Notes: generated from the sequence alone by a model not told the origin. A stretch of DNA of 64,000 nt from Fidelibacterota bacterium (GCA_028338895.1 JAOLAV010000001.1:9315-73314), one strand, 5' to 3'. Counted from the stretch's first letter, positions 270 through 19,654 are shown. A program made the numbers and translations.

Positions 270-535
270 CTTTTTAAAATGGTTTTATCCGTGTGAAATT
301 CGATGTTTTCTTTATCTTCCATTGGTTTATTAAAGTCCCTCGATGGCATATATTCAACAAAATTTTCTTCTAATGCTAAATTTTCAATAGTTTTTAATGC
401 GCTCATTAAATGGTACTTATCCTCACCTTTTAGTTCTTTCTCTAATTTCTTAAAGTATCTTTGTTGAACCTCAAGTTCTGTGAGTTCTTTCTCCCAAACG
501 CTATTCCATACTTGTTTTAAATCTTTTTTATTCAT
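266..535 (-). CDS. hypothetical protein
   Basis: 89-aa ORF, 4-nt coupled to 18..269. No recognisable motif. Confidence 0.35.
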   Translation of the reverse strand: MNKKDLKQVWNSVWEKELTELEVQQRYFKKLEKELKGEDKYHLMSALKTIENLALEENFVEYMPSRDFNKPMEDKENIEFHTDKTILKR

Positions 536-609
536 TTGAGCGTTTTTTCTACTTGAATCAATAGAAACGAGCTTTTTGTCGTTAATTCTTGTGAATTTGA
601 AAATAGACT

Positions 610-1050
610 TTAACCATAAATAGTTAAAATGTTTTCATTTAACTGTGTATTATATTCTTGAAGACTACCATTTGCTGGGCTTGAGATTGCAATACCATTT
701 GAATTAAATCTACCTCCGTGTCCAGATACACAAGTTGAGATACCATTTTGAAATGGTTTTAAATCATAGCCTGAATGTGTACAATTATTAGTAAATGCTT
801 TGACAATATCATTGGAACGTAGTAGGAGTAATCCTTGTGAATCAATAATATTACTATTAGTTACCACTGATCCTCCATTTTGCAATAATGGGTTATAGAA
901 ATCTAAATTCAAATCAATAAGTAATTCTTCTCTATTTTCCGATGACATCACAACATTTTCTGTGCAACTCTTTAAAAAGGGGACTCCAACACCAATGGCA
1001 CAAGCACAAAAGATTTTAGTTGTGTTATTCAAAAAATCACGTCTTTTCAT
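610..1050 (-). CDS. Rieske-like [2Fe-2S] domain protein with twin-arginine signal
   Basis: The N-terminus MKRRDFL fits a Tat motif. CTHSG...(14 aa)...CVSGHGGRF resembles the Rieske CxH...CxxH cluster motif, but the second box is CxxxH and therefore atypical. Confidence 0.55.
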   Translation of the reverse strand: MKRRDFLNNTTKIFCACAIGVGVPFLKSCTENVVMSSENREELLIDLNLDFYNPLLQNGGSVVTNSNIIDSQGLLLLRSNDIVKAFTNNCTHSGYDLKPFQNGISTCVSGHGGRFNSNGIAISSPANGSLQEYNTQLNENILTIYG

Positions 1051-1329
1051 ACTTCACCTTTTATTTTTATATTTGATATCTTACGATAAAGTTAATTAAG
1101 AATACTAAAGGAGATCAAAATGGAATTAAATTAACCAAAAGAAAGTCAGTTGTCTAATGAAGAGGTAAACACATATTATGATTTCGATTGCTTGCATAGC
1201 TTAACTTTTGTTAATAAATAGTATCTTTAATGAGTAAAGTATCTTTTTTAAACGATTGTTCATTGTACAGTAAAAACCTAAAAAAAAATTTGTTGAATCT
1301 CATTAATTAACTCAAGTAGTACTACTATT

Positions 1330-1563
1330 ATGATTAAACACCTACCACTACTACTATTCATTGGGCTAGCTTTCGTTGGATGTCAGCAAGAGGAAAATAT
1401 ACTTTCTCCTGAAAATTGCATAGATGAATCACTTATTTCTGATGATAGTGTTTGTTATGAAATGTATGCCCCTGTTTGTGGTTGCAATGGTGAAAACTAT
1501 TCAAATGATTGCTATGCTGGAATTGCAGGTGTCACAGAATGGACTGAAGGTGAATGCAATTAA
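1330..1563 (+). CDS. Kazal-type protease-inhibitor-like lipoprotein
   Basis: Lipobox LAFVGC. CYEMYAPVCGCNGENYSNDCYAGIAGVTEWTEGEC matches the Kazal core (PVCG-x-[DN]G-x-x-Y-x-N-x-C ... GEC). Confidence 0.6.
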   Translation: MIKHLPLLLFIGLAFVGCQQEENILSPENCIDESLISDDSVCYEMYAPVCGCNGENYSNDCYAGIAGVTEWTEGECN

Positions 1564-1648
1564 AGTCCAAAATTTTACTTTTTAGCACACTTTAAGTGCA
1601 TGGCTTTTGACTTTGTTTGGTTATCTCTTCTACCCCATTAAATAAATC
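1562..1648 (+). repeat. intergenic repeat family, copy A (AAAGTCCAAAATTTTACTTT ... GGCTTTTGACTTTGTTTGGTTATCTCTTCTACCCCATTAAATAAA)
   Basis: Near-identical to copy E, with clear similarity to copies C and D. It begins at the stop codon of the preceding gene. Confidence 0.8.
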
Positions 1649-1724
1649 AAAAAAAGGTTATTTTTATTTATAAAGTGAGATGTAAATTAATTTTTAATTT
1701 AAATAAATAAAGTAAGAGAATCAT

Positions 1725-3890
1725 ATGAAATCAATAACTATTATCATCTTTTTAACCTCCTTTTGTTTTGCCAAAGTTCAATTTCCGGATCATCTTACTA
1801 AGATGGCAAAAGTCATACAAAATAAATATCAAGTCAATTTAAAAAATCATACATCCATTCAACAGAATCAAAGCACTAGAGATGCTGAAGATCTTATTGG
1901 TGAATGGTATGTTTTTAATGCAGAAAATAATGCTTTTATTACTGTTGGAAGTGATCAATCAATCCCTGACCCACTATCAATGATTGCATTAGTAGAAGGT
2001 GCCGGAACGGTGAATGCATCTACAACAATCCCTGAAGTCGCTCAACCATTAGAACTAAATTACTTTTTATCCGCTGGCGCACTAGATGGTGGTGATGGTG
2101 ATGGTGATGGTGATGGTGAATATACCTATGGTCCAAGGATTGGAGCATACCTAACTGATCTCGACCCCAGCTCTGGAGGAGAAGTCTATTTTGATAATAC
2201 GGATAATGAAGCCGTCATTACTTTCATCGATGTTCCTTTATTTGATAATAATGATGAGACTCAAACATTTCAGATTCAATTAATTTATGAAACAGGTGAA
2301 ATCATTCTTTCTTTTCTAGATCTATCACTCTTAGGAGAACATACTGAAACCGCACCTGGTGGTTTAGCAATTGGCGTCGCCAATGGTAGCGGAGAGTATA
2401 CAGGTATTGACCTTAGTGGTTCACCTCAAATAGTGTCTATGAACCCAATTGAAGGGTTTTCAAACGATAATCAACTGGATTTAGAAAATATAAAGGTTAC
2501 ATTCACACCAGGTAACGCTAATATGTTTGGTTATTCTGTTTCAACTGAACCCATCACCGAACTTCCCGGTTCTTACTTGAATCAAATCCCACTTCAAGAT
2601 GATGGTTTTCTTGAGCAAGATTTAAGCTCAAACTTTACATTCTATGGCGAAACATACAGTATGATATATATTAATAATGACGGGAATATTGGCTTTGAAT
2701 CAGGTGATCAATATTGTGTGTGTTGGTTTTGTGATGATGGAGATGGACTTTGTGCGGCTTCTTACTTAGCTGGATATGCCGTTGAAGATGATTCCAGAGA
2801 TGACCATACTGAGTATGGAAGTGTAATGAATATGAATTTTATGGAATTTTCCTCCTTAATGATGGGGGAATCTCTCGGAAATATATCTTCTCCAACCATC
2901 GTTAATTTTGGTTCAAGTAATGACTCTGAAGAAAATATTGATATTGTTAATGCAATGCTATTCAATGGAAGTGAATGGATCGAATTTAGTTTAGAAGAGG
3001 GTAACTCAAGTAATGTTACTCTGGATGAATCAGGTTATACCTTTGAATTTTCAAATGTTGTGTTGACGCATGAAGTGGAAAACTGGACCTTGACATTAAA
3101 TGGTACGATTGGTCCAGAGCTAATTGAATTACAGGCAGGTATTGAAACAGAGTTGACTTTTATGGGAATGATGGATTCCGACTCATCAGGAGAAGAAACA
3201 GAGATGATATTTAACTCTGATGGTACAGGTTTTGAGGTCCTATCTGAGGAAAATGGTTATTCTGAAACAACTGATTTCACATACACGACAAGTGGAGATG
3301 ATAGCCTAACGTTAATTTTTTTAGAGGAAGATTATTATGGTAATGTAGATCCGGAAACAATAGGTTTTAATTATTATTTTATCGAAAGCGAAAGTGATCT
3401 AGTACCGTTTGATACATTGGTTTTATCAGGTGATAATCATCTTTGTGATGGTTATGAAAGTGACGGTGCTACGAACTATCAATTATGTTTGGAAGAGGAA
3501 GGTTTTTCTGAATTACTTGGTGATGTTGAAGATGTGACCTCTTTTGTAGTTACATTTGAGATGTATCTGATTCCGGCAGAATATGTAAAGGTAGATCCTC
3601 TAGTAAATGCTGAATTACCAAATAAATATAGACTCCTTACAGCATATCCAAATCCATTTAATCCCGTAACCACAATTCGCTTTGATCTAGGTGAAAATGT
3701 TGCGAGTAATACAGTATTAAAGATATTTGATATTTCAGGTAGGCTAGTTGCAACGTTACTAGATGAAAGGATACAGCAAGGGTCTTATGAAATAAAATGG
3801 AATGCTTCGACTATGGCAACGGGTATTTATTTCACAGAGCTCAGTTCAGGTAAAATAAGAGAAACTAGTAAAGTTGTATTAATGAAATAA
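1725..3890 (+). CDS. secreted protein with T9SS-type C-terminal sorting domain
   Basis: Signal peptide. GDGDGDGDG repeat. The C-terminus YPNPFNPVTTIRFDL...GIYFTEL...KVVLMK is typical of a T9SS CTD. Confidence 0.8.
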   Translation: MKSITIIIFLTSFCFAKVQFPDHLTKMAKVIQNKYQVNLKNHTSIQQNQSTRDAEDLIGEWYVFNAENNAFITVGSDQSIPDPLSMIALVEGAGTVNASTTIPEVAQPLELNYFLSAGALDGGDGDGDGDGEYTYGPRIGAYLTDLDPSSGGEVYFDNTDNEAVITFIDVPLFDNNDETQTFQIQLIYETGEIILSFLDLSLLGEHTETAPGGLAIGVANGSGEYTGIDLSGSPQIVSMNPIEGFSNDNQLDLENIKVTFTPGNANMFGYSVSTEPITELPGSYLNQIPLQDDGFLEQDLSSNFTFYGETYSMIYINNDGNIGFESGDQYCVCWFCDDGDGLCAASYLAGYAVEDDSRDDHTEYGSVMNMNFMEFSSLMMGESLGNISSPTIVNFGSSNDSEENIDIVNAMLFNGSEWIEFSLEEGNSSNVTLDESGYTFEFSNVVLTHEVENWTLTLNGTIGPELIELQAGIETELTFMGMMDSDSSGEETEMIFNSDGTGFEVLSEENGYSETTDFTYTTSGDDSLTLIFLEEDYYGNVDPETIGFNYYFIESESDLVPFDTLVLSGDNHLCDGYESDGATNYQLCLEEEGFSELLGDVEDVTSFVVTFEMYLIPAEYVKVDPLVNAELPNKYRLLTAYPNPFNPVTTIRFDLGENVASNTVLKIFDISGRLVATLLDERIQQGSYEIKWNASTMATGIYFTELSSGKIRETSKVVLMK

Positions 3891-4016
3891 TATAATTCTA
3901 CCATCTGCATTCTTTTAAATTTTTATTATTTATAATTTTATCTAATGAAGTTTTAATTAACATATATTTTAAAAAAAACATAGCAATTTATTTAACTATT
4001 ACAGGAACATCCGATA

Positions 4017-5888
4017 ATGAAAAATAAAATTTATATTAGTTTATTTATTTCTACTCTCGCAGCACAAGTTGATTACAATACTCAAATTCAGCCAATATTT
4101 GATAATAACTGTATAAGTTGTCATAATAACGGTGGAGGCTACGCCGGAGGATTAGACCTCTCTTCCTACAACAATGTTTTAGAAGGTGGAAATAATAGTA
4201 ATAATATAATTCCCGATGATCATTCGAATAGTCTTCTATATGAAAGAATCACCCTACCTGAAAACAATCAACTATCTATGCCACAAAATGGAACTCCTTT
4301 GTCCCAGCCTGAAATAGGTTTAATTGCTCAATGGATAGATGAAGGTGCTCTAGAAATGCCAGTGGATGTAGATTGCTATGCTGATGATGGTACAGAGGGT
4401 GTTATGATTTGGGAAACTTGCTATTCTATACAGAACACCACTTCGATTGGTTGGCCGCTTTCTATCCCTGATTCTGCAACTTCACTTCCTGCTGAGTTAT
4501 TTACTTTAACCAACCTAACTATTTTGTCTATACAATATTCAAATATAAGCGGATCAATTTCACAAGATATTGGAAACCTTTCTAATTTGACAAGACTTGA
4601 TCTTAGTCACAATCAACTTTCTGGAGAAATTCCATCAGAGATTGGTAATCTAACTAATTTGATAGCTCTTAATCTTAGTTCAAATCAGCTCTCTGGAAAT
4701 ATTCCTGTTGAATTGTATCAATTATTAAATTTAAAAGGTGAAATGGAATACGTTTCTGGCCCCGGTGGAGGTGCATCAGTTTTTCATATGGGATTAAATC
4801 TATCGAACAATAGTCTTACGGGATCCATTCCGGAAGAAATAAGCAATTTTAATAACCTCAAATCTCTCGATCTATCCTTTAATGAATTTTCAGGAGATTT
4901 ACCTGCCGGTTTATATACCTTAGATAGTCTTCAAACTCTTAACCTTAGTAATAATTTATTGACTGGTGAAATTTCTCATGAGATTGGCAACCTATTAAAT
5001 CTTGAAGGTGTTACAACGTACGCGCACAATAGCATGACACAGTATGATGCTCTCAATTTATCCGATAACTTATTTACTGGACTTATACCAGAGAGTATTT
5101 GCGATTTACTTTTGGATTGGGACGATGACTATATGAATGAAAATCAAGGATTTAGTCTCTCAAACAATCAATTCTGTGCCCCTTTCCCTACTTGTATTGA
5201 ACCATTTACAGGTAGTCAAGACACCTCAAACTGTAATTTAATATCTCCTTACTTTATCGAAGGTCGTTGGATTTCAGAGTACTACGGAAATACAATGTAT
5301 GAATTTGATGGGCAAAATAGATTGACTTATTATTGTGATACTTCGGAATGTGATTCAAGTTATTGGAATGCTTTAGATACAAATGATGCCATTCCTGGAA
5401 GAAATCCATATACTTTTATAAATGATACTTTAACCATCGATCTACATTTTGGAAATATTGCGGTAGAAGTAGTGAATTTTTTGTGTGAAGGCAATGTGAT
5501 TGATTTTAATAATCAACAAAGTAATTTAAAAAGAGTAGGAATTGATTTTGATGAATGCGACGATTATGACGGTCAACAACTTGAGCTATCAAATACAACA
5601 AATACTCCTGAATGGTTTAAACTTAATCAAAACTATCCCAACCCATTTAACCCTAATACAAAGATTAAGTATGCGTTACCTGAAGATGCATTGGTAAGTG
5701 TAAGTATATATGATGTTACAGGAAGAATGGTTAAGTCTTTAATAAATATGAATCAGTCTACTGGATATCATTCTATTCGATGGGATGCGACTAATGATAT
5801 TGGTGAAGCTGTCTCCGCTGGTATGTATATCTATACCATTCAAGCGGGTGAATACAGATCTACAAAGAAGATGGTTCTACTTAAATAG
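4017..5888 (+). CDS. secreted CxxCH (Planctomycete-cytochrome-c-like) + leucine-rich-repeat protein with T9SS CTD
   Basis: N-terminal IQPIFDNNCISCHN...MPQNG...WIDEGA. About 8 LRRs of the LxxLxLSxNxLSGxIPxEIGNL type. C-terminal YPNPFNPNTKIKY...KKMVLLK. Confidence 0.85.
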   Translation: MKNKIYISLFISTLAAQVDYNTQIQPIFDNNCISCHNNGGGYAGGLDLSSYNNVLEGGNNSNNIIPDDHSNSLLYERITLPENNQLSMPQNGTPLSQPEIGLIAQWIDEGALEMPVDVDCYADDGTEGVMIWETCYSIQNTTSIGWPLSIPDSATSLPAELFTLTNLTILSIQYSNISGSISQDIGNLSNLTRLDLSHNQLSGEIPSEIGNLTNLIALNLSSNQLSGNIPVELYQLLNLKGEMEYVSGPGGGASVFHMGLNLSNNSLTGSIPEEISNFNNLKSLDLSFNEFSGDLPAGLYTLDSLQTLNLSNNLLTGEISHEIGNLLNLEGVTTYAHNSMTQYDALNLSDNLFTGLIPESICDLLLDWDDDYMNENQGFSLSNNQFCAPFPTCIEPFTGSQDTSNCNLISPYFIEGRWISEYYGNTMYEFDGQNRLTYYCDTSECDSSYWNALDTNDAIPGRNPYTFINDTLTIDLHFGNIAVEVVNFLCEGNVIDFNNQQSNLKRVGIDFDECDDYDGQQLELSNTTNTPEWFKLNQNYPNPFNPNTKIKYALPEDALVSVSIYDVTGRMVKSLINMNQSTGYHSIRWDATNDIGEAVSAGMYIYTIQAGEYRSTKKMVLLK

Positions 5889-5913
5889 TTCTAAACATAG
5901 AATGAATAGAAAA

Positions 5914-5937
5914 GCCTCGATTACTCGAGGCTTTTTT
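5914..5937 (+). terminator. rho-independent terminator
   Basis: Hairpin GCCTCGA-TTAC-TCGAGGC followed by a T6 run, 26 nt after the stop codon. Confidence 0.75.
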
Positions 5938-5952
5938 GATTTTATTTAAATA

Positions 5953-6072
5953 GAATCCAAAATTGTACTTTTAGCACCTTTTCAAAAGATGTTTACGCTT
6001 ATATTGCTAAACTTAAAGACTTTTAAGTTTTTTTAGTAACTCTTTAGACTCCAACCACTTCCCCATTTTACA
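5953..6072 (+). repeat. intergenic repeat family, divergent copy B
   Basis: The 5' block AATCCAAAATTGTACTTTTAGCACC and the 3' block CCACTTCCCCATTTTAC resemble the ends of copies A, C, D and E. The middle part is not conserved. Confidence 0.35.
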
Positions 6073-6205
6073 CTAGTATTATAATAACTAAGCTACTATT
6101 TGCCTCAACCTTCAATAACCAAGATATATAATAAAGATTAGAAACACTATAATATTTATTTCTCATATATTATACAATAATAGATACTTTTTATATATAT
6201 TATAT

Positions 6206-6679
6206 GTGATGAAAACTGCAATATTTGTTGATGTCCAAAATATTTATTATACCACTCGAGATACTTTTAAACGTCCTTTTAATTATAGACGTTTCATGAA
6301 TAAAATAGAATCTAAAGATGAAATATTTAAAGCATATGCTTATGCTATTGATAAAGGAGATGAGAAGCAACAAAAGTTTCAATTTGCTTTGCAAACTATT
6401 GGGTTCAATGTCAAACTAAAACCTTATATATCTCGATCAGATGGAAGCTCTAAAGGCGATTGGGATGTAGGTATAACCATTGATATCTTAGAATCAGCCA
6501 AAGAAGTAGAGAAAATAATTCTATTATCAGGTGATGGTGATTTTGATTTACTCGTGCAAAAAGTAATAGATAAATACGGGTGTATTGTTGATATTTATGG
6601 AGTGAAAGAGTTGACAGCTAATTCTCTTATAGAAACTGCTTCAGAATTTCATTCTATATCAAATAAAGATTTACTCTAA
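6206..6679 (+). CDS. NYN (LabA-like) domain protein
   Basis: AIFVDVQNIYY near the N-terminus and LLSGDGDFDLLV are hallmark NYN/LabA PIN-like motifs. Confidence 0.7.
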   Translation: MMKTAIFVDVQNIYYTTRDTFKRPFNYRRFMNKIESKDEIFKAYAYAIDKGDEKQQKFQFALQTIGFNVKLKPYISRSDGSSKGDWDVGITIDILESAKEVEKIILLSGDGDFDLLVQKVIDKYGCIVDIYGVKELTANSLIETASEFHSISNKDLL

Positions 6680-6875
6680 TCTAAAGGAAAATTATATAAT
6701 GAATCCAAAACTGACCGATTAATTATTTTAAATATTTATAATAAATGTATTTAATGCCATTCTTTAGTAAATCATTATTACTTTTCAAAAAAATTAGGAT
6801 GGTCTTAATAAAATAGGTCTAAATCTTAGAACCAATAAAAATCCTTGATTAATCGGGGTTTTTTTGTTTCTAATT

Positions 6876-6970
6876 AAAGTCCAAAATTTCACTTTTAAGA
6901 GCTTTTACTTTAAAGTCTCTGCATAGCTTTTGACGTTGTTTGGTTATCCTTTCTGCCGCACTAAATAAAC
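6876..6970 (+). repeat. intergenic repeat family, copy C
   Basis: AAAGTCCAAAATTTCACTTTT ... GCTTTTGACGTTGTTTGGTTATCCTTTCTGCCGCACTAAATAAAC. Confidence 0.75.
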
Positions 6971-7060
6971 TAAGAGAAAGACTCCATTTTAAATTTGCAG
7001 GATGATTGGTAAATTATCTGTACGCTAAATAATCATTTATATACATATGAAGTTAAAAAA

Positions 7061-8353
7061 ATGAATAAAAAAACTTATCAAAGACCTATCTCTCTTTTTA
7101 AAGCTTTATCATTTCTAGTAACCGTATCTTTAATACAATCTCAAAATATTATCGATGCTTATTTAATCGGTAACTATACTACTACTTTGATGGGGACACA
7201 GACCCAGGGTTTGATCTTACCACGTGATCTAGACTTTCATAAGGATGTTGAGAGGCAAAATGAGCTTTGGATTATCAATGAAAATAATCTTGATGTTCGA
7301 GACCACGGTGGGAGCACAGTCACATATTATAATGCCGGACAGGATAACCAATGGTCAGAATATAGATGGGATGCTTATTCAGGCCATTTCATGAATATCG
7401 CCAGTGCTATTGCTATTAGCGAAAATGGCACCTTCGGTAATACATTGGATGTTCAAGATGCAAATAATAATAATAATGGTTATTTTACCGGACCTGTTTT
7501 ATGGCCCACAGATACTTCTATTTACGCCCGAGCTAACCAGGATGGTCCGCTGTTGGGTAGTCATTTAGATATGATTCATCAGACTCCCTACGGAGTAGGC
7601 ATTGCCAGTGCCGGCGAAAATGTGTATTGGGTTTTTGATGGGTTTCATAATGCCATTGTAAAATATGATTTTGTGCAGCCCCATATTGTCGGTGGCGACG
7701 ACCACTCTGATGGCAAAGTCTGGCGCCACTCTGAAGTTGTTGTTCAACGCTCCCCCGGATTATCTAGCCATATGGAATTTGACCCGGCCTCCGGGTGGTT
7801 ATACATCGCTGATACAGGAAATGAACGGATTATCAAGATGGATCCTAATTCAGGCACAGTAACAGAAAATCTAAATCCCTACGGAGAAACACTTGCAGGA
7901 TATTATAATATGTCAGGAACGGATTGGGATGTGGTTGTAGATACAGATTTGATCAAGCCCACAGGCTTAGATATCTACGATGGCAGGCTTTTAATAAGTG
8001 ATTATGCCAATGGGGATATTATCGTTTATGATATTACTCAAGATCCCGTTGTTGAATTAGGCAGGATTCAAACAGGGATCAGCAATCAGATCATGGGGTT
8101 AAAGGTTGGACCGGGAGGTGAAATTTGGTTTGTTTGTTATACCACTCATGAATTATATCAACTCACAACTATGTTGAATGGAGATGTGAATGGAGATGGT
8201 AGTTGCACCATTATAGATGTTATTTTTTGCGTACAATTTATAATGGGATTCTACGATCTAGAAGAAGATCAAATATACCGTAGCGATTTAAATTTTGACG
8301 GAGAAATTAATCTTTTCGATTTATTACATATTGTAGATGCGGTTGCGAATTAA
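7061..8353 (+). CDS. secreted NHL-repeat beta-propeller-like protein with C-terminal dockerin-type domain
   Basis: Signal peptide. NHL-like repeats (YIADTGNERIIKMD, LLISDYANGDIIVYD). The C-terminal pair GDVNGDGSCTIIDV...DLNFDGEINLFDLLHIVD is a dockerin-like duplicated Ca-binding loop. Confidence 0.7.
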   Translation: MNKKTYQRPISLFKALSFLVTVSLIQSQNIIDAYLIGNYTTTLMGTQTQGLILPRDLDFHKDVERQNELWIINENNLDVRDHGGSTVTYYNAGQDNQWSEYRWDAYSGHFMNIASAIAISENGTFGNTLDVQDANNNNNGYFTGPVLWPTDTSIYARANQDGPLLGSHLDMIHQTPYGVGIASAGENVYWVFDGFHNAIVKYDFVQPHIVGGDDHSDGKVWRHSEVVVQRSPGLSSHMEFDPASGWLYIADTGNERIIKMDPNSGTVTENLNPYGETLAGYYNMSGTDWDVVVDTDLIKPTGLDIYDGRLLISDYANGDIIVYDITQDPVVELGRIQTGISNQIMGLKVGPGGEIWFVCYTTHELYQLTTMLNGDVNGDGSCTIIDVIFCVQFIMGFYDLEEDQIYRSDLNFDGEINLFDLLHIVDAVAN

Positions 8354-8532
8354 AACTGCCAAAGAGGTGTTTTAAATTTCATAATTGATTTCTATTTCTT
8401 ATTGAAATCTTAAAAATGACTAGTTTCCTAAGTGAAAGAAGAATTAAATCAACATCCAATCCGAGAGTAAAAATTATTGGAGCTATTTTATAATTAACCG
8501 CGCCTACTTCGTGGATTTTTTTGTTTCAAACT

Positions 8533-8628
8533 AAGGTCAATAATTTTACTTTCAGTACCTCTCACTATAAAATCTGAGTATGGTTTTTGACTTTTTTTTT
8601 GTTATCCCTTCTACCCCACTTAATAAAA
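8533..8628 (+). repeat. intergenic repeat family, copy D
   Basis: AAGGTCAATAATTTTACTTTC ... GGTTTTTGACTTTTTTTTGTTATCCCTTCTACCCCACTTAATAAAAA. Confidence 0.7.
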
Positions 8629-8819
8629 ATGAAGAAAGTCCTCTGTTTAATAAGCAGGCAAATACATTCTATTACTATTTTTTATTTTTGTAGTTTAAAT
8701 TGTATGTTTCAGTTGATAAGACCTGTTTTAGATTAAATTCAAAAACAAATGAAAGATATCTCTACTTTTTATTTATCAGTGTCCTGTTATTCTTTATAGA
8801 TATTAACTCCAAGGATTTA

Positions 8820-9587
8820 ATGATTAATACTTCTTTTAAGCAAATACGTGATATTATCAAGATAGCTCCTGAATTAGATATACCTAATATTATTTTAAAA
8901 AATCATTGTGCTCTTGTTCCATCTCAAAATTTCAGTTTTTCTAAAACCAAAAACGGCTCATTGAAAAAATTTGTTAAGGAATGGGATGCGCTAGAGGTAG
9001 ATACACATATGGCCGATAATGGTAGGTATCGACTAAGAAGATATGGCGTATTTTATTTAAGTCAAAAATCCTTGCATTTAGATTATCAATCTAACACTAC
9101 TTTTTACCAAAGCTTGGAATCAAACCCTATTAATGGTGGAATAAATAGAGGATTTTCAAGTCTGTCAGATTCGACCATTAAAAGTCATTTTTTACATGCT
9201 CTTATTCGGCTAGATTTTAAAAACTTACCTAATTCCATTACTTGTAAAAATAAATCTTGGAAAATTGGAGTACATCAAATAAAAATAAAATCTTTTATGG
9301 GTCGTATTGGATTACCTACTCCTGAAGGAATTCATCGTGATGATGAAAATTTTACAGTACAGCATCTAATTGATAGACATAATATTGCTTCAGGAGAAAA
9401 TCTTTTTTACGGTCAAAGCCTAAATCCATCTAAGGAAGCAGAGATAAAATGGTTACAAAAAGATTTTTTTGATTCATACTACTTTGACAAATCAGTTTGG
9501 CACAGTGTGTCTCCGGTTGAATCTCTGGATGGAATTAATGAAGGTTATCGAGATGTTCTGTTGTTAGATTTTGTCCCCAGGGGTTAA
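8820..9587 (+). CDS. 2OG-Fe(II) dioxygenase, IDO-like (2OG-Fe_Oxy_2 family) putative amino-acid hydroxylase
   Basis: PEGIHRDDENF (HxD) plus a downstream WHSVSP His. I place the start at ATG 8820 rather than the track's TTG at 8700. Confidence 0.55.
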   Translation: MINTSFKQIRDIIKIAPELDIPNIILKNHCALVPSQNFSFSKTKNGSLKKFVKEWDALEVDTHMADNGRYRLRRYGVFYLSQKSLHLDYQSNTTFYQSLESNPINGGINRGFSSLSDSTIKSHFLHALIRLDFKNLPNSITCKNKSWKIGVHQIKIKSFMGRIGLPTPEGIHRDDENFTVQHLIDRHNIASGENLFYGQSLNPSKEAEIKWLQKDFFDSYYFDKSVWHSVSPVESLDGINEGYRDVLLLDFVPRG

Positions 9588-9776
9588 GTTTATTTTATTG
9601 GAAATAAATACGGCATCCAAAATTAAATAATTATAGAAAAATCAGAAAAGAGACTTTATAACATTGTTAATAATTATGCTGATATTCTACATTGATTAGC
9701 TCACCCAAAGATCAGGTTAAGAAATAACAGTCCTTCATCTGAAAAAAATATTTTGTATAGAAGATAGCACTAATTA

Positions 9777-10748
9777 ATGGCAATATACACAAAACTTAAT
9801 CACCAAAATATTCAGTTATTAGCTAATGATTATGATCTGAAAATTATTGAGTTTTCGCCTCTTGATGGTGGAAGTGGTAACTCCAGCTACTTATTGAAAG
9901 ATGAAGTAAACAGCTATGTGTTAACTGTCTGTGATGATAAAAGACTGGAGGAAGTAACTAAATTGGGTCAACTGCTGTTGTTACTTAAATCTTATAATGT
10001 ACCTTGCAACCGCTTGATAAAAACTGTGAATGGTGAAATCTTAACCACATATACTATATCTAAAAGCATTAAACCAGTAATCCTTAAATATTTTATCGAG
10101 GGGCAGGTTGTTAAGAAACTAAATGAATCCATGCTAATTCAGGTTGGTAGAAAAGTAGCTCAGCTAAACAAGATTCCTTCACCTGATTACTTGCCAAAGA
10201 ACCATCCTTATGGACGTCATTTTTTTTCAAAAGCTTTAGGCCTAGCTATAGATAATGAATATGAGTCTTGGCTTTCTGAAGAGATTGTTTATCTGGATAA
10301 TAAAATTATTCCTAATTTACCATGTGGTTTAATTCATGGTGATTTATTCTATGATAATTTACTTTTTAAACAATCTCTGAATAAACCAATATCTTTCAAA
10401 GCTATTATAGATTTTGAAGAAGCATGTAATTATTATCTTGTTTTTGAATTGGGTATGGCTATAATTGGTTGTTGCTCAAACGATATTACAATCGACTTAA
10501 AAAAAGCACGTGCTTTTGTACATGGCTACCAACAAGTACGAAAATTAAAAGATATTGAAAAAGAAAGCCTCCAGTTATTTGTTCATTATGCCGCAGTTGC
10601 GACATCTTACTGGCGTTTTAATAAATACAATATAGAAGAACCTCGTAAAGAAATGATTGGGCATCATTGGCAAATGGTAGAGTTATCCAAGGAAGTCTCT
10701 AAAATTTCTACTACTCGCTTTTTTGATGCAATTTTTAACTCTGATTAA
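9777..10748 (+). CDS. homoserine kinase type II-like / APH-fold phosphotransferase
   Basis: The N-terminus MAIYTKL...L..YDL..I.EF.PL.GGSGNSSYLL resembles ThrB type II. Catalytic loop LIHGDLFYDNLLF (HGDxxxxN). Confidence 0.6.
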   Translation: MAIYTKLNHQNIQLLANDYDLKIIEFSPLDGGSGNSSYLLKDEVNSYVLTVCDDKRLEEVTKLGQLLLLLKSYNVPCNRLIKTVNGEILTTYTISKSIKPVILKYFIEGQVVKKLNESMLIQVGRKVAQLNKIPSPDYLPKNHPYGRHFFSKALGLAIDNEYESWLSEEIVYLDNKIIPNLPCGLIHGDLFYDNLLFKQSLNKPISFKAIIDFEEACNYYLVFELGMAIIGCCSNDITIDLKKARAFVHGYQQVRKLKDIEKESLQLFVHYAAVATSYWRFNKYNIEEPRKEMIGHHWQMVELSKEVSKISTTRFFDAIFNSD

Positions 10749-10929
10749 ATCATTCCTAAGAACAGGATTATCTTTAATATTTGAATATGATTAATTTTAT
10801 TATACTATGTTTTTCTTTATTGTCTATTATTTTTGCCCAACCAACTATTGATTTAATTGAACCTGATAACTGACAAAGAATTTGAAAAGACTAAGCAAGA
10901 ATTACTAAAAAGATTTAACGGAGCAACTA

Positions 10930-11214
10930 ATGAAATTTCTAACAATAATATTTTTAACTATTTTTGTTTCAATGCAGGCACAAGAAGAGAAACAAAAGAA
11001 AAGTAAAGATTCAATTTTCCTTGAAATAAAGGTTAAAAACTCTGATTTACAACTAGAAATAAATAACTTAAAAAAGCAATATGATTCAGAGTTAAATAAA
11101 TTAAAAGTCCATTTTAAAGAGGACAAAAAAATACTAAGAAAATCTTACAAACAAAGATTAAAAGAGCTACGAAAAACTTACAAGCAACAAAAAATTAAAA
11201 AAAAGAAAAAATAA
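10930..11214 (+). CDS. secreted Lys-rich coiled-coil-like small protein
   Basis: Signal peptide MKFLTIIFLTIFVSMQAQ followed by highly charged K/E-rich sequence. Confidence 0.45.
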   Translation: MKFLTIIFLTIFVSMQAQEEKQKKSKDSIFLEIKVKNSDLQLEINNLKKQYDSELNKLKVHFKEDKKILRKSYKQRLKELRKTYKQQKIKKKKK

Positions 11215-11317
11215 TTACCATTCTCATAAAGAATGTTTTAAATATAGTATATTCATTGGATAAGCTTTTTAGTAATGTTAAACACTGATAGGGTATGAAT
11301 AAAAAAGAATTTAGTAT

Positions 11318-12976
11318 ATGAGAGTAAAAAGAAAAATATTTGTCACTATTTCCATAATATTTTCATCCCTATTTGGGGATCATACATGGGATATAATTCA
11401 AGATGGTATTCTAACTCCAAAATGTACTATGTGTCATATTAGTGGCTCCTCTTTTGCAGAGCAGTCAGGACTTATACTCACTGAAGATGTTGCTTATGAT
11501 GAATTGATAAATGCTACTCCTAACAATATTCATGCTGCCGACGATGGACTCGAACTCGTGGGAACAAATGGGATAAGTAGCTTATATTCAAGCTTTTTAT
11601 GGGAAAAAATTAATGCCCCTAACTATGAGCATTTTTATGAAGACCATCCTGAATATGGTTCAATTATGCCTATTGGACTTGACTTTCTTACGAATGGAGA
11701 GCTTGAATTTATTAGACAATGGATCATTTCTGGTGCACCCGAAACAGGTGAAGTTGCAGATGAATCCCTACTGTCAGATACTACGATTTTTTCACCCCCT
11801 GAATTTGAACAATTAGAAATACCCGATAATGGATTACAAGTTCATATACCACCATTTAATGTAACACCTCAATCTGATAGAGAAATATTTTATTATGTTG
11901 AGTTAGATACTCAAGATTATGTCTACGTCAATAGAATTACGACAACAATGAGACCTGGAAGTCACCACTTTATACTCTATTCATATTATGAAACTGGAAT
12001 GAATAATCTTCCTCAGCCTAATATATATCGAGATCTTCATAATTTTGATGGTACCACAAACAACCAAGTATTGTATCAAATGCAATTTCAAAAATTTGTT
12101 ACAGGAAGTCAAACAAGGTTATATGATTACACATTTCCAGAGGGGGTCGCGTTGAAAGTTGACCCTGCTTTTGGTTTTGACCTTAACTCGCACTACGCAA
12201 ATTATACAAATGATACCATTATTGGAGAAGTTTATAATAACTTCTATTATTCTGACCCTGATGAGGTAGAACGAGTTGCTGAAATCTTAGATTTAATTAA
12301 TCTAGACCTCTATCTTCCCGCAAATGAAGAAACAGTTGTAAATAAAACCTTCTGGATTGGAAATGAATATGGAATTCCCATAAATATTTTTCAATTATGG
12401 TCGCATGCACACAAACTAAATACTCAGTTTAAAATTTTTAAAGTAAAAGAAGATGACCCTAACTTTCGAGAACTTGTATATATCTCTTATGATTGGGATC
12501 ATCCTCCTGTAATGAAGTATGATCCCCCTATGGCATTAGATATAAATGAAGGTTTAGAACTTGAAGCAACATATTTTAATAGTACAGACCAAACTGTTTC
12601 ATTCGGATTTTTAAGTACAGATGAAATGATGGCATTGTTTGGTCTTTTTTATACAGGGGATCAGTTAAGTAACGATAGTGATGATAGGTATATTTCTTCG
12701 GCATTTTTATTACATGACAATTATCCAAATCCTTTTAACCCAAATACTAAATTAAAATATGATTTGCCAAAAGACTCATTCGTTGATATAACAATATATG
12801 ATTTACTTGGTAATGTGGTAAATCACCTTGTAAAAAAGAATCAAAGCTCTGGCTCTAAATCAGTTCAATGGAATGCTACTAACAATCAAGGTGAACCTGT
12901 ATCTGCAGGAGTTTACTTTTATAAGATTCAAGCAGGTGAGTTTAGTCGAACCAAGAAGATGATTTTACTGAAGTAA
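11318..12976 (+). CDS. PHM/DBH-like copper type II monooxygenase-like protein with N-terminal CxxCH domain and T9SS CTD
   Basis: CTMCH...MPIG...WIISGAP N-domain. Ligand-like pattern HH(216/217)-H292-HxH(363/365)-M(437/438), with spacings of about 70-75 aa as in peptidylglycine monooxygenase (SHHFILY, SHAHKL, STDEMMALFGLFY). C-terminal YPNPFNPNTKLKY...KKMILLK. Confidence 0.6.
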   Translation: MRVKRKIFVTISIIFSSLFGDHTWDIIQDGILTPKCTMCHISGSSFAEQSGLILTEDVAYDELINATPNNIHAADDGLELVGTNGISSLYSSFLWEKINAPNYEHFYEDHPEYGSIMPIGLDFLTNGELEFIRQWIISGAPETGEVADESLLSDTTIFSPPEFEQLEIPDNGLQVHIPPFNVTPQSDREIFYYVELDTQDYVYVNRITTTMRPGSHHFILYSYYETGMNNLPQPNIYRDLHNFDGTTNNQVLYQMQFQKFVTGSQTRLYDYTFPEGVALKVDPAFGFDLNSHYANYTNDTIIGEVYNNFYYSDPDEVERVAEILDLINLDLYLPANEETVVNKTFWIGNEYGIPINIFQLWSHAHKLNTQFKIFKVKEDDPNFRELVYISYDWDHPPVMKYDPPMALDINEGLELEATYFNSTDQTVSFGFLSTDEMMALFGLFYTGDQLSNDSDDRYISSAFLLHDNYPNPFNPNTKLKYDLPKDSFVDITIYDLLGNVVNHLVKKNQSSGSKSVQWNATNNQGEPVSAGVYFYKIQAGEFSRTKKMILLK

Positions 12977-12978
12977 TT

Positions 12979-13063
12979 AAAGTCCTTAATTTTACTTTAA
13001 ACAAACTTTAAGTGTATGGCTTTTGACTTTGTTTGATTATCCCTTCTACCTTACTAAATAAAT
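12979..13063 (+). repeat. intergenic repeat family, copy E
   Basis: AAAGTCCTTAATTTTACTTTAAACAAACTTTAAGTGTATGGCTTTTGACTTTGTTTGATTATCCCTTCTACCTTACTAAATAAA. It starts 3 nt after the stop codon. Confidence 0.8.
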
Positions 13064-13394
13064 TTAAAGAAATTCCGTTGTATAATTAACGGATACATAT
13101 ATTATATTGCTATTTTTTGTAGATTCAAGGATAAGGAAATAATAGGTTTAATATGTCTTTTTTAAAAGTATTGCAAAAAGTTGAAAAAGTAATTCTGGGT
13201 GATAAAGCTGATTTAAAAAAGCCTAAGAACCATTGGAAGAAATATCGCAAACAAAAAAAAGCATAAACTCTGTATGATTCAATTTGTAAGGATTAATTTT
13301 CTCAAGAATGGATAAGAGGCACAAACATTATTATGCTATAGTATGTTGATTTTGTCATCTGATATAAGTTCTAGAAAGAAGAGTATGTTGAAAA

Positions 13395-14306
13395 TTATTT
13401 TATGAGTTTAATTTTTTGTGTTTTAACATAATCTTTATTTTTCATTATCACTATATAGGTTCCAGATGAAACAAGAGAACCATTCATATCTGAACCATTC
13501 CAGCCTAATATATGAGTTCCAGAACTCATATGCTGGCTTAATAAAGTACATACCCATTTCCCCGAAATATCATAAATAGAAATACCTATATTTTCAGAAT
13601 CCATTAAAGTGAACTTTATTTGGACTTTATTATTAAATGGATTTGGAAAAGCAGGATGTAAAACTGACTCTCGGATAGATTTTTTAGATTCTTGATCGAC
13701 AAGAACTGTAGGAGTCTCTTCATTTATTATAATATCAAATATACCGACTAAACCAAATTCTGTCTCTTCTAGAGGTATTACTAATCCTAAATGATTCTCC
13801 TCCCACTGTTCATCAATATAGGGATCTATCTCAAAATAACATTGGGTGACTAATTCTAAACCGGATGGAGTTGTCACTTTATAATGAAAGTGACGAGGTC
13901 GCCCTGCATAGTAACCTGGCCACACAGATTCAAATGAATAATTACCATTTTCATCAGTAGTCATTAGTCCTCTCAAATTATATGAATCCTCATTCGAATT
14001 CCCAGATTCACAATCTTGAAAAACAGTATAGCACCCTTGATCATTTGCATGCCATACATCTACTAAAACATTTGATATTGGTGTTTCACAATCATTCTCT
14101 TTTACTTTACCTGAAATAAAAATTCGGGTTCCAGGTTCATCTGAGTTAGCCAGAATCGTTCTATGGGGATGATTCTCCGACCAATAAGGCCCTAATATAT
14201 CAGATGAAGTAAGATCACAATCTCTATTCCCAAAGCTTGGACTTGGGATTAGAATTCCTGCTAAAGTACTTAAAAAGCTAGTTTTAAGAAACATTCTTCT
14301 TTTCAT
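13395..14306 (-). CDS. intradiol ring-cleavage dioxygenase-like protein with Tat signal and T9SS CTD
   Basis: MKRRMFLK Tat motif. GPYW...VDVWHAN..G.Y...RG...TDENGNYSF..VWPGYYAGRPRHFHYKV matches the intradiol dioxygenase core. C-terminal FPNPFNN...KIKLIK. Confidence 0.75.
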   Translation of the reverse strand: MKRRMFLKTSFLSTLAGILIPSPSFGNRDCDLTSSDILGPYWSENHPHRTILANSDEPGTRIFISGKVKENDCETPISNVLVDVWHANDQGCYTVFQDCESGNSNEDSYNLRGLMTTDENGNYSFESVWPGYYAGRPRHFHYKVTTPSGLELVTQCYFEIDPYIDEQWEENHLGLVIPLEETEFGLVGIFDIIINEETPTVLVDQESKKSIRESVLHPAFPNPFNNKVQIKFTLMDSENIGISIYDISGKWVCTLLSQHMSSGTHILGWNGSDMNGSLVSSGTYIVIMKNKDYVKTQKIKLIK

Positions 14307-14665
14307 AATTAAATATAATTACATAGGTATAAATAAAAAAATATAATTAGAGCATAAAGAAGTATAGAAGAAGATATAATTAAAGGTGAGACTTTGACCA
14401 AAGTACTACCAAATAATTAATCCTATAATTGCAGACTTTATAAAGATTATTTTTTTTGAGCTTTATTCGTATTTCAAATACTTTTTTTTACAATCTCAGA
14501 TATTATATAGCTATTTATTACAGATACATATATTGTGGCAAAATTCAATATCTTCATTCAATATGCCATAACCATATATTTCCTCAATACTATCCATGAA
14601 TAGTAATTAAATTTAGTATTCATGAAAAAAAGTCTCATCCTATCCACAATAATTTTTATTCATTT

Positions 14666-15850: not shown

Positions 15851-16867
15851 ATGAAAAAATATATATATGTCGTTCTATTAATTGGTTTTTGGAGTTGTGA
15901 GGATACTGATGCTCCTTCTAAATTTGAATTTCACTCAAATAACAGAGTCTCATCTCTTCTTATAACTTCAAGTGAGTACAGTAATTGGATAAACAATGAT
16001 GGTTTTCGAGATTATAGTTTACGAATGCCTCTATTTAATGAGATTTATGAAACCTTTCCAGATGAATATGATTTTATTTTTCTTGTTTTAAATGAGCCAA
16101 ACATTCCATCCAATTTATCTTACTATGGGATGTTGATTGGGGTCTCTAATGATGTTGAAGGCATAGGTAAAACTATGTTTGATTATTCGAGTGATTATGG
16201 TTCTACAGGTAAACTAAAAGCTGTAATGCAATTAACAGGATTAGAATATTTAAAATACGGCCCCTCTCTTCACGAGCTTGCGCACCAATGGGCAAACTCT
16301 GCACTTCCTACTCATAATGTAGATGAAGCGGGTGATAATTTAACTTCATATCCATATTGGGGTCATTGGGGATTTACTGGTGGAAGTACTCCTGGCCAAT
16401 TAGGAGGCTTTAATCAGAGTTCATTAATTGATAATGGAGATAGCTCATATACGGTTGATCATTTTGGTCCTTTTGCAAATGGTGGTAATGGAGTTCCGTA
16501 TAATGAATTAGAGTTATACCTTATGGGTTTCCTACCAATTTCTTCTGTTACAGACTTTGATATGTTTACCAACATAACCTCCTTAAGTGTAAATGAGACA
16601 ACTTTTGATTTAACAGCTACCAAGACTACAATTACACCTAACTACTTAGAGACCTCTCTTGGAGAAAGACTTCCCTCCACAACCGATTCACAAAAAGATT
16701 TTAAGTTATTAGTCGTTGTCTTAACAGATGCACCATTATCTGATGAGGAATGGGGAAAAGTCGATGCCACGGCAGAATGGTTTTCTAAGAAAGAAGATGA
16801 CGGTACAAGTCTTTATAACTTTTGGGAAGCAACAAACGGAGTTGCTTCTATTACAATAGAAAATTAA
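15851..16867 (+). CDS. putative Zn-metallopeptidase lipoprotein (HExxH)
   Basis: Lipobox IGFWSC. LHELAHQW is an HExxH motif. Confidence 0.5.
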   Translation: MKKYIYVVLLIGFWSCEDTDAPSKFEFHSNNRVSSLLITSSEYSNWINNDGFRDYSLRMPLFNEIYETFPDEYDFIFLVLNEPNIPSNLSYYGMLIGVSNDVEGIGKTMFDYSSDYGSTGKLKAVMQLTGLEYLKYGPSLHELAHQWANSALPTHNVDEAGDNLTSYPYWGHWGFTGGSTPGQLGGFNQSSLIDNGDSSYTVDHFGPFANGGNGVPYNELELYLMGFLPISSVTDFDMFTNITSLSVNETTFDLTATKTTITPNYLETSLGERLPSTTDSQKDFKLLVVVLTDAPLSDEEWGKVDATAEWFSKKEDDGTSLYNFWEATNGVASITIEN

Positions 16868-16976
16868 AATATCATTTTACTTTTAATACACTTCTAAATA
16901 TCCTCCTACTGGGCGTACTATTTTTCACATATTGTATATATTCTTTCTTATTCAATAAATAAATGAAAAAAATTTT

Positions 16977-19212: not shown

Positions 19213-19232
19213 TCTACACCTTCGGTGATTAA

Positions 19233-19409
19233 TTATTCTTTGTCATAAGCAAAACCAAAACCAAAAAGTACTATCAAAAAAGGAAAATACCATCCTTGGC
19301 TTTGAATTGTTACTATTGCAAGTGTAAACCCAAATACTGTTGCAAAAAAGAGTATACCCATTAGCCTCCATCGTTGTAAGACTCTCTTCTTTTTAAACCA
19401 TTCAAGCAT
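19233..19409 (-). CDS. small membrane protein (58 aa, below track cutoff)
   Basis: Manual translation MLEWFKKKRVLQRWRLMGILFFATVFGFTLAIVTIQSQGWYFPFLIVLFGFGFAYDKE. Two TM segments. It is tandem with 19030..19212. Confidence 0.3.
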   Translation of the reverse strand: MLEWFKKKRVLQRWRLMGILFFATVFGFTLAIVTIQSQGWYFPFLIVLFGFGFAYDKE

Positions 19410-19654
19410 ATTTAAAGTTAATACAAAATGGAATAAAGATTTTATTACAGTAAATAAAGTACCATGTTTATTTTTTGAATATTTTTAGCCTGATAGACCT
19501 ATTTAGCATAACTTTTTACAACATTTTTTAAATCCTTCTCCTCACTTTAATAAAAAAATAATTTATATGATATCTAGGTATAATCAGGGAATAAAAAATG
19601 CTCCCTCTTATGATCGTCGTTTTTATTATTATGTAATGATGATTATATTCAAAT

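Follow-up and report, generated by a model that had tools for sequence, protein, structure and literature searches.

In an uncultured marine bacterium of the Marinimicrobia (SAR406), a family of repeats, each about 110 bases long and all in one orientation, lies in a gene island whose content shuffles rapidly, between genes that are unrelated to one another. The family is confirmed as real; its sequence is new and its kind ordinary. It was detected in a stretch of DNA of 64,000 nucleotides, referred to here as the window. SAR406 bacteria are numerous in the ocean but have yet to be cultured; we know of no account of how their secreted-enzyme genes are controlled and exchanged. The repeated module sits after the terminator of the upstream gene and stays with the downstream gene when neighbors change, and it is conserved block by block across three lineages. 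Our preferred reading, held tentatively, is that the element may be a portable promoter or operator region that acts at the DNA level on island genes and belongs to the gene downstream of it.

The four full copies proposed by a first-pass annotation of the sequence (A, C, D, and E; Table 1) were borne out in three ways. A repeat finder returned a 76-nt family with three copies (72 to 84% identity) and a 33-nt family with five copies; an nhmmer profile built from the four copies and run against both strands of the 64 kb matched A, C, D, and E alone (E values of about 8e-31 to 7e-24); and a 23-base degenerate pattern for the 3' block had four matches versus 0.00 expected from 100 shuffles. The divergent copy placed at 5953 to 6072 was likewise recovered as copy B, which has the 5' block (E values of 0.008 to 0.13) and a C-rich 3' part that has diverged. 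The proposed remnant at 16868 to 16915 was not supported by nhmmer (E = 8.7), but in a consensus scan of 3,192 windows it ranked, as copy F, together with copy G just below the true copies and B (scores of 22.5 and 22.0, with the next best at 18.5). The annotation was correct about the single orientation, but its count of five to six copies had missed the degenerate copy G. The family extends beyond the stated 90 nt or so, running about 20 nt past AATAAA (AAAGAAAGTCC plus a small hairpin), and copies A and E, described as near-identical, are in fact 81 to 84% identical. All of the copies A to G are intergenic and on the plus strand, within 1.5 to 19.6 kb of the window; the other 44 kb are devoid of copies.

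Table 1. Positions of the repeat copies and associated features in the window
Feature	Position	Strand	Basis or content
Copy A, full	1558..1664	+	nhmmer profile
Terminator (intrinsic) of upstream gene	5907..5938	+	directly 5' of B
Copy B, divergent	5948..6075	+	5' block 5948-5981 and diverged C-rich 3' part
Copy C, full	6872..6989	+	nhmmer profile
Copy D, full	8529..8648	+	nhmmer profile
Downstream companion module	8632..8700	+	AAGAAAGTCC, small hairpin, GGCAAATACATT..., then TATTTTTGTAG
Copy E, full	12975..13083	+	nhmmer profile
Copy F, degenerate candidate	16862..16972	+	consensus scan
Copy G, degenerate candidate	19462..19562	+	consensus scan

The element begins sharply with TAATTAAAGTCC, which is followed by an A/T tract (AAAATTTTAC) and by a variable, indel-rich center that often contains a palindrome, ACTTT(A)AAGT. 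The next block, TTGAC/GGAC-TTTG, holds an inverted AAAGTC; TTGAC is invariant in the eight aligned full-length copies, but not in the wider set of 14, some of which have TTTAG or TTGAT instead. A conserved C-rich block (TTATCCCTTCTACCCCA) follows, and an A-rich stretch ending in AAAGAAAGTCC closes the 3' block. The C-rich tract had been noted as unusual, and indeed the background DNA has a GC content of 31%. Relatives of the companion module occur at 13067 to 13130 and 1139 to 1179, with a relic at 13311 to 13350, and the conserved unit is 110 to 250 nt long. Heptamers resembling AAAGTCC occur two to five times per copy, one of them inverted, versus about 0.35 expected; this enrichment is not independent evidence, since the motif was chosen post hoc and the copies are related. 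The AAAGTC sites are spaced at 45, 46, 49, 54, 54, 55, 55, and 56 nt, which is inconsistent with helical phasing. Pairing of AAAGTC with GACTTT, claimed for every full copy, is perfect in A and E, but C reads GACGTT and D reads AAGGTC.

The position of the copies relative to genes points downstream. The first bases of copy A, AATTAA, are the last codon and stop of a Kazal-like open reading frame (ORF) (1330 to 1563), and the gene 3' of it encodes a 721-aa T9SS cargo protein (start, 1725). Copy B lies 5' of an NYN gene (6206 to 6679). Copy C is preceded by a terminator (6843 to 6858) with a T-run and followed by the gene for a 430-aa dockerin protein (7061), and copy D is preceded by a terminator (8498 to 8514) with a T-run and followed by a 2OG-Fe dioxygenase gene (8820 to 9587). 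Copy E starts with the TAA stop of a 552-aa T9SS protein, and 3' of it there are only decayed relics, which suggest gene loss, and then a convergent gene. Copy F starts within the AAT TAA end of an ORF (15851 to 16867) and ends 4 nt before the gene for a 497-aa dockerin protein, and copy G lies between divergent genes, 92 nt 5' of a T9SS endonuclease gene (661 aa; 19655). The reported start of the element at or within 3 nt of a stop codon therefore applies to A, E, and F, whereas B, C, and D lie about 60, 192, and 175 nt beyond the stop and begin right after intrinsic terminators. Terminators are also found directly 5' of L015_1, L016_1, and L029_a/b, copies from other genomes, and because of these terminators the element is not a 3' untranslated region (UTR) of the upstream gene. 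Copies L015_2 and G, in divergent intergenic regions, have no co-oriented upstream gene at all. A co-oriented ORF starts 2 to 292 nt 3' of the element in 16 of 19 copies, and the downstream genes are functionally unrelated.

Outside the window, members of the family were found in two other lineages only (L015, L029, and L030 in one and L016 in the other), with six copies in 8.7 kb of L015. In four metagenomes containing the species of the window, pattern matches map to this island only. A pattern scan of genome contigs from species representatives, a set that does not include the source genome, gave one chance match (L001, a Planctomycetota metagenome-assembled genome); scans of viral contigs gave no match except one by chance (L026), and among the metagenome matches, L019 and L020 were also due to chance. 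No att repeat was found beside the L016 copy, which lies near a tRNA-Met gene and an integrase gene. An exact look-up of two window proteins found no record, and a literature search for integrons, islands, or T9SS in Marinimicrobia or SAR406 found nothing relevant. The copies are about 55 to 80% identical overall, yet they share identical 18-nt blocks across the three lineages, and they do not cluster by genome: L015_2 is 78% identical to copy E but 56 to 61% identical to L015_1 and L015_3. Among truncated copies, the gene-proximal 3' part has been kept in seven of nine.

Comparisons of related loci show what travels with the element. The window and a 99%-identical strain (L002) differ 5' of window position 5944, at the 5' end of copy B, and have B and the NYN gene in common. 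Between L015 and L029, homology of the cyclase genes (92%) begins inside the upstream element, and L029 lacks the downstream copy, L015_6. The gene upstream of D is homologous to one in a relative (L005) up to position 8526, just before the element. At L015_3 the element has replaced the native last codons of a gene, which ends in KTE and a stop in L029 and in SN and a stop, both from the element, in L015. Genes with 87 to 95% DNA identity occur in wholly different contexts, and the homology of these genes extends from 19 to 42 nt before the ATG to beyond the terminator. Two relatives, L005 and L027, carry the same genes (87 to 95% DNA identity) without the element, which is therefore dispensable for those genes, and it is absent beside the flanking-gene relatives (L005 to L012, L021 to L025, L027, L028, and L031 to L040).

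Among the functions suggested by the first-pass annotation, a promoter or operator fits best with the position, orientation, and linkage of the element, but the specific arguments for an FCB-type promoter failed. Promoters of the FCB/Bacteroidetes type have TTTG at −33 and TAnnTTTG at −7, about 19 to 21 nt apart, and the element does not show this arrangement. In the proposed TTTG-N19-TAAATAAA, the second part shares just the TA of the −7 box, and it reads TATATACA, TATACACA, or AAAGTAAT in other genomes and so is not conserved across lineages. Upstream of 139 ORFs, TAnnTTTG showed no positional enrichment. A sigma-70 promoter would have TTGACA and, after 16 to 18 nt, TATAAT; TTGAC is not followed by a −10 element at that distance, and of the 66 sites that a scan yielded in total (shuffle mean, 72.5), none lies in the 3' block. 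Neither a −35/−10 nor an FCB −33/−7 pair is recognizable at a constant position within the element, which counts against the promoter/operator reading, as do the variable distance to the start codon, the lack of an intact co-oriented gene 3' of copies E, L015_1, and L016_1, and the presence of the same genes without the element in L005 and L027.

We hypothesize that the element forms the upstream portion of a modular 5' control region in which the AAAGTCC heptamers would be the predicted binding sites for one regulator and the gene-proximal block would carry or adjoin the transcription start, with several unrelated island genes switched together. Protein binding, promoter activity, and co-regulation are thus what we infer for the module, and a shared switch fits better than a gene-specific leader because the downstream genes have unrelated functions. 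The shared promoter and operator regions of regulons, such as upstream activating or operator arrays with repeated half-sites, are similar in that their sites lie upstream, are co-oriented, have one heptamer in direct and inverted form, serve diverse targets, and are conserved block by block. They differ in that the present unit is unusually long and was copied almost wholesale, so that it behaves like a homologous repeat family rather than convergent short sites, and in that neither a core promoter nor a regulator was found here. Since the copies share one orientation, crossovers at them or between them would also rearrange the gene content of the island. The genes under a shared upstream module would form a co-regulated set, and the module would offer a route to finding the regulator.

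A functionless or selfish dispersed repeat, either a decaying MITE-like insertion or the scar of a segmental duplication, with similarity maintained by gene conversion in the island, is an unlikely alternative to which several observations nevertheless lend themselves: the element is found in few lineages, close relatives do without it, many copies are truncated or degenerate (B, F, G, a relic in L013, and L015_4 to L015_6), and its 5' end, with stop codons in two frames, sometimes cuts ORF ends. It shares with REP/BIME, ERIC, and Correia-type MITEs the properties of being short, noncoding, multicopy, and intergenic and of sometimes overlapping gene ends, but it differs from them in having no strong palindrome, in its single orientation, and in its confinement to one island. 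The ends TAATTAAAGTCC (left) and AAAGAAAGTCC (right) are direct repeats and the inverted repeat is internal only; terminal inverted repeats and a clear target duplication are absent. With no dispersal beyond the island in the window or in the four same-species metagenomes either, the earlier suggestion of a REP/MITE-like repeat was not upheld. At least 19 copies, all of those found, are co-oriented with genes, and the confinement of the same-species metagenome matches to this island also speaks against a dispersed repeat. Uniform neutral decay does not fit with identical 18-nt blocks in copies as divergent as these.

It is possible, though rather improbable, that the element is a gene-cassette recombination site and that units of element, gene, and terminator are captured or exchanged by a site-specific recombinase at the 5' end, TAATTAAAGTCC, much as integron cassettes are, except that the site would precede the gene and the unit would bring its own promoter. 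Each locus is an array of unrelated units of one to four genes, co-oriented and separated by the element, closely similar genes occur in different contexts, the sharp left boundary adjoins terminators or coding ends, and the junction between the window and L002 lies at the 5' block. CALIN arrays are clusters of attC sites without an integrase, and like these and integron attC arrays, the family is a one-orientation repeat of about 100 nt that separates unrelated co-oriented genes, sometimes starts in a stop codon, has weak dyad symmetry, conserved ends, and a variable center, and accompanies strain-variable gene content. Unlike attC sites, the 8- and 14-copy alignments have no conserved AAC...GTT, the RYYYAAC/GTTRRRY cores are absent, and the ends are instead TAATTAAAGTCC and TTGAC/GGACTTTG. 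It is the downstream gene that the element accompanies (B with NYN and the L015/L029 cyclase), not the upstream ORF; upstream genes keep their own terminators; and conservation continues about 60 nt past the dyad, which measures only 6 to 7 bp, with no long imperfect hairpin under RNA energy parameters and folding no better than that of shuffled sequence. No integron integrase or other recombinase domain was seen in the 30 window ORFs screened between 18 and 36970. Truncated copies end at many positions, which is what random deletion, and not a fixed crossover, would give, and the strain-level junctions amount to a single case. That Marinimicrobia islands are built of promoter-bearing cassettes on which a recombinase acts at TAATTAAAGTCC, an integron-like system with opposite polarity and a different site, is improbable.

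Action at the RNA level, as an unstructured 5' leader or small RNA (sRNA) whose C-rich UUAUCCCUUCUACCCCA and A-rich tail a protein or antisense partner would recognize, is quite unlikely. It would agree with the unusual C-rich tract, with the gene-proximal part being the most conserved and the one kept in truncated copies, and with the ends of L015_6 and L029_c, 2 and 34 nt before the ATG. However, a promoter would still be needed inside the element because a terminator lies directly upstream, and the structured UTR or sRNA also suggested by the annotation was not supported by Rfam, consensus folding, or covariation. The element had no Rfam match at gathering or relaxed thresholds: the whole window gave none at the gathering threshold and terminator-like matches at 5873 to 5984 only at an E value of ≤5, and there were none in L015, L016, L027, and L029. 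Minimum free energy z-scores were +0.05, +0.37, −1.89, −0.46, and +0.24. RNAalifold gave −3.2 kcal/mol without real covariation for 8 copies and 0 pairs for 14, paired cells were at 64.6% versus 63.8% in shuffles, and the covariation score of the best single-copy fold (0.146 versus 0.127 in shuffles) was reached by 61 of 500 shuffles, within the limited power that 8 to 14 distinct copies afford. As far as these tests reach, they rule out RNA structure, and a coding function is ruled out to the same degree. The candidate leader peptide, MAFDFVWLSLLPH followed by a stop, was rejected: a frameshift interrupts it in D and stop codons do so in E, L015_1, and L015_3, with substitutions of 10/8/14 by codon position. 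An origin as a tRNA relic had no significant support, as local alignments to tRNA-like fragments of L029 and L027 reached a P value of <0.01 in 1 of 27 cases.

Single genes in these islands change neighbors at only 5 to 13% sequence divergence. The element lies at the joints and can therefore serve as a practical marker in studies of how such islands are put together.

The intergenic repeat reported in the first-pass annotation was recovered by profile, pattern and consensus searches as an element family. A repeat finder returned 76-nt (identity 72-84%), 37-nt 5' and 33-nt families in the window, the last with five members. A profile built on the best four copies gave exactly four full matches across both strands of the 64 kb (E 8e-31 to 7e-24) and a weak match to the 5' block of the divergent copy B, and a degenerate 23-base pattern drawn from the 3' block matched four times against 0.00 expected. 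In a consensus scan of 3192 windows, the degenerate candidates F and G ranked right below the true copies and B and above all else on either strand; the observation therefore holds, and its extent slightly exceeds the first description. The copies, up to seven, are co-oriented and intergenic and span 1.5-19.6 kb, with none in the other 44 kb. Copies A and E, described as near-identical, share only 81-84% identity, and the proposed start at the preceding stop codon applies only to A, E and F; an intrinsic terminator precedes each of B, C and D.

Alignments of 8 and 14 copies revealed a sharp left end (TAATTAAAGTCC) abutting a terminator T-run or an ORF end, followed by AAAATTTTAC-TTTTAGCAC and then a centre that varies, includes a 10-nt indel and often holds the palindrome ACTTT(A)AAGT. 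Next come an invariant GAC-TTTG (as TTTTGAC or GGAC), a C-rich block (TTATCCCTTCTACCCCA; 18 nt identical in copies from three lineages) and an A-rich stretch terminating in AAAGAAAGTCC; the window has a GC content of ~31%. AAAGTCC-like heptamers, a motif picked post hoc, occur two to five times per copy against ~0.35 expected.

Positions of the element and of associated features in the window and on compared contigs
Feature	Location	Remarks
Copy A	window 1558-1664	profile match 1555-1654
Copy B	window 5948-6075	divergent
Copy C	window 6872-6989	profile match 6869-6978
Copy D	window 8529-8648	profile match 8527-8636
Copy E	window 12975-13083	profile match 12973-13071
Candidate F	window 16862-16972	consensus scan 16841
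Candidate G	window 19462-19562	consensus scan 19441
76-nt repeat family	window 1580, 6903, 12996	
37-nt repeat family	window 1557, 5947, 6871, 12974	
Homologous stretch with dockerin protein gene	window 7042-8526	87% to L005
Homologous stretch with cyclase gene	L015 5886-7298	94.5% to L027
Homologous stretch with 2OG-Fe dioxygenase gene	window 8798-9577	73% to L027
Extra ~107 nt	L013 1441-1549 (-)	at window 13310
Second shared intergenic module	L027 853-942, 3627-3716, 13513-13602; window 8660-8700, 13100-13130	
Signal-peptide stretch	L027 41-80, 803-842, 7762-7801, 7890-7929; L015 2815-2884	L015 stretch vs L027 13555-13624 and 3105-3163
tRNA-like 3' fragments	L029 4085-4165, 7395-7470; L027 5190-5240	
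tRNA-Met gene	L016 3023-3099	
Integrase-like ORFs, phage-like genes	L016 3191-4072	
Small membrane-protein gene	window 19228-19422 (-)	homologue L016 4632-4823 (+)
DnaE2-like and ImuB/IMS-family genes	window 32796-36970 (-)	

Within the data reached, the family is restricted to particular lineages and to islands. A scan of species-representative genomes gave a chance match only; a metagenome scan matched eight contigs. Four of these belong to the same species and all map within window 412-14726, two belong to other genomes and carry true copies, and two are chance matches. Contig L015 carries three full and three partial copies within 8.7 kb, contig L016 has one, and L029 (also L030), 92%-related to L015, adds four. 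The element is missing from contigs whose homologues of the flanking genes are 68-95% identical (L005-L012, L021-L025, L027, L028, L031-L040). Copy-to-copy identities do not group the copies by genome, so the family either is older than the divergence of these lineages or has passed from one to another. On L016, a tRNA-Met gene stands directly before integrase-like ORFs in fragments and small phage-like genes, and the element copy lies ~3 kb further along; an att repeat was looked for and not found.

More striking than the element is the gene-by-gene shuffling of these SAR406 islands, for which it is a convenient marker. Single genes with 73-95% DNA identity stand in wholly different neighbourhoods in three comparisons with L005 and L027. 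Homology in these starts 19-42 nt 5' of the ATG and, in the two comparisons where a 3' limit is visible (in the 2OG-Fe alignment the L027 locus ends first), stops past the gene's own terminator or ~33 nt past the stop. Island genes thus swap neighbours one at a time at low divergence.

The element, when retained, stays with the downstream gene. The window and strain L002 are 98.7-99% identical from 5944 on and unrelated before, and B begins with precisely this base; the gene ahead of B in L002 is a different Kazal-like gene whose stop lies inside the element's AATTAA, exactly as at copy A. The cyclase genes of L015 and L029 are 92% identical, with homology beginning inside the upstream element, and the copy 3' of the L015 gene is absent from L029. 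The gene-proximal part is kept in seven of nine truncated copies, whose 5' break points differ. At L015_3, a numbered copy on L015, the upstream ORF has lost its native end to the element and terminates in ...YISN* (SN* read from the element) where the L029 homologue has ...TIKTE*. At window 13310, the same-species contig L013 has ~107 extra nt, in which the beginning of a signal-peptide ORF is joined to a remnant of the 3' block of the element. These nt are flanked by AATG at either end; at the matching spot the L002 scaffold has a gap of 100 N.

Several identities could be rejected. Rfam gave no match at the gathering threshold and only weak terminator-like matches at relaxed ones, which rejects a known RNA. 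Single-copy MFEs were no better than those of shuffles; RNAalifold found only the invariant long-range AAAGTC/GACTTT helix (-3.2 kcal/mol) with 8 copies and nothing with 14. In the best single-copy fold, paired cells (64.6% versus 63.8%) and covariation (0.146 versus 0.127, reached by 61 of 500 shuffles) likewise stayed within the range of shuffles, so the structured UTR or sRNA suggested earlier is unsupported. The frame MAFDFVWLSLLPH* does not stay open in four copies and lacks third-position bias, which rejects coding, and a tRNA relic was also rejected. Integron attC differs in its core sites, absent here, and in linkage polarity; the REP/MITE-like option fails on the single orientation and the lack of terminal inverted repeats and dispersal. 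The supposed likeness to FCB-type promoters was not confirmed, the element matching neither that consensus nor sigma-70.

The element is a new sequence family, matching none described, of a familiar kind, the repeated intergenic or regulatory module. It follows terminators, is co-oriented with the downstream gene and linked to it, retains the gene-proximal core, is conserved block-wise, and has repeated heptamers and no RNA structure. We tentatively take these features to fit best with a promoter/operator region that acts at the DNA level, is portable and is common to unrelated island genes. One upstream control region would then serve several unrelated genes, and recombination at and between copies would drive gene turnover. 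A functionless repeat is unlikely: it would fit the patchy distribution but neither the block-wise conservation nor the strict orientation. Still less probable is a site for cassette recombination lying 5' of the gene, which would account for the sharp left end and array-like layout but not for truncation points that scatter, and a screen of 30 ORFs revealed no recombinase; an unstructured RNA leader is equally doubtful.

The label "secretome island" is only partly apt because the genes between copies are heterogeneous: T9SS cargo proteins (721, 623, 552 and 661 aa) and dockerin proteins are present, but so are a Kazal-like small protein, an NYN nuclease, a 2OG-Fe dioxygenase and an APH kinase. 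Among the homologues of the 430-aa gene is a Candidatus Marinimicrobia protein in NCBI. The NYN gene lies in the variable island between B and C, whereas in L031-L040, from an abundant SAR406 population, an 85%-identical protein, of the same sequence in at least 24 contigs, has one fixed context between minus-strand genes.

A companion module often lies 3' of the element (a small hairpin, then GGCACAAAC..., then TATTTTTGTAG) and also occurs without it in L027; its TTTGTAG motif shows ~14-fold enrichment at 11-30 nt ahead of start codons. A further intergenic module that is shared (terminator-T7-GTTTATAG-CTCACACACATTG..GTAATTATTTGTAGATTTGGATATG) has the TTTGTAG motif with this enrichment in these loci and is a possible core promoter for island genes. 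A coding stretch for a signal peptide (MKKYLF..LLIG; 75-98% DNA identity) recurs at the 5' end of various island genes and in orphan mini-ORFs just past stop codons. The shared stretches suggest that modules of promoter plus signal peptide are exchanged among unrelated secreted proteins. Intergenic spacers of related islands hold tRNA-like 3' fragments (anticodon arm with TGG, T-arm GGGAGTTCGA[AG]TCTC), called by neither ARAGORN nor Rfam as tRNAs; they are possible att relics left when integrases mediated insertions. An uncalled small membrane-protein gene (MEWFKKKRVLQRWRLMGILF...) in the window has its homologue within the L016 integrase island. Elsewhere in the window, a DnaE2-like DNA polymerase III alpha paralogue (1000 aa) adjoins an ImuB/IMS-family protein, the usual error-prone polymerase cassette.
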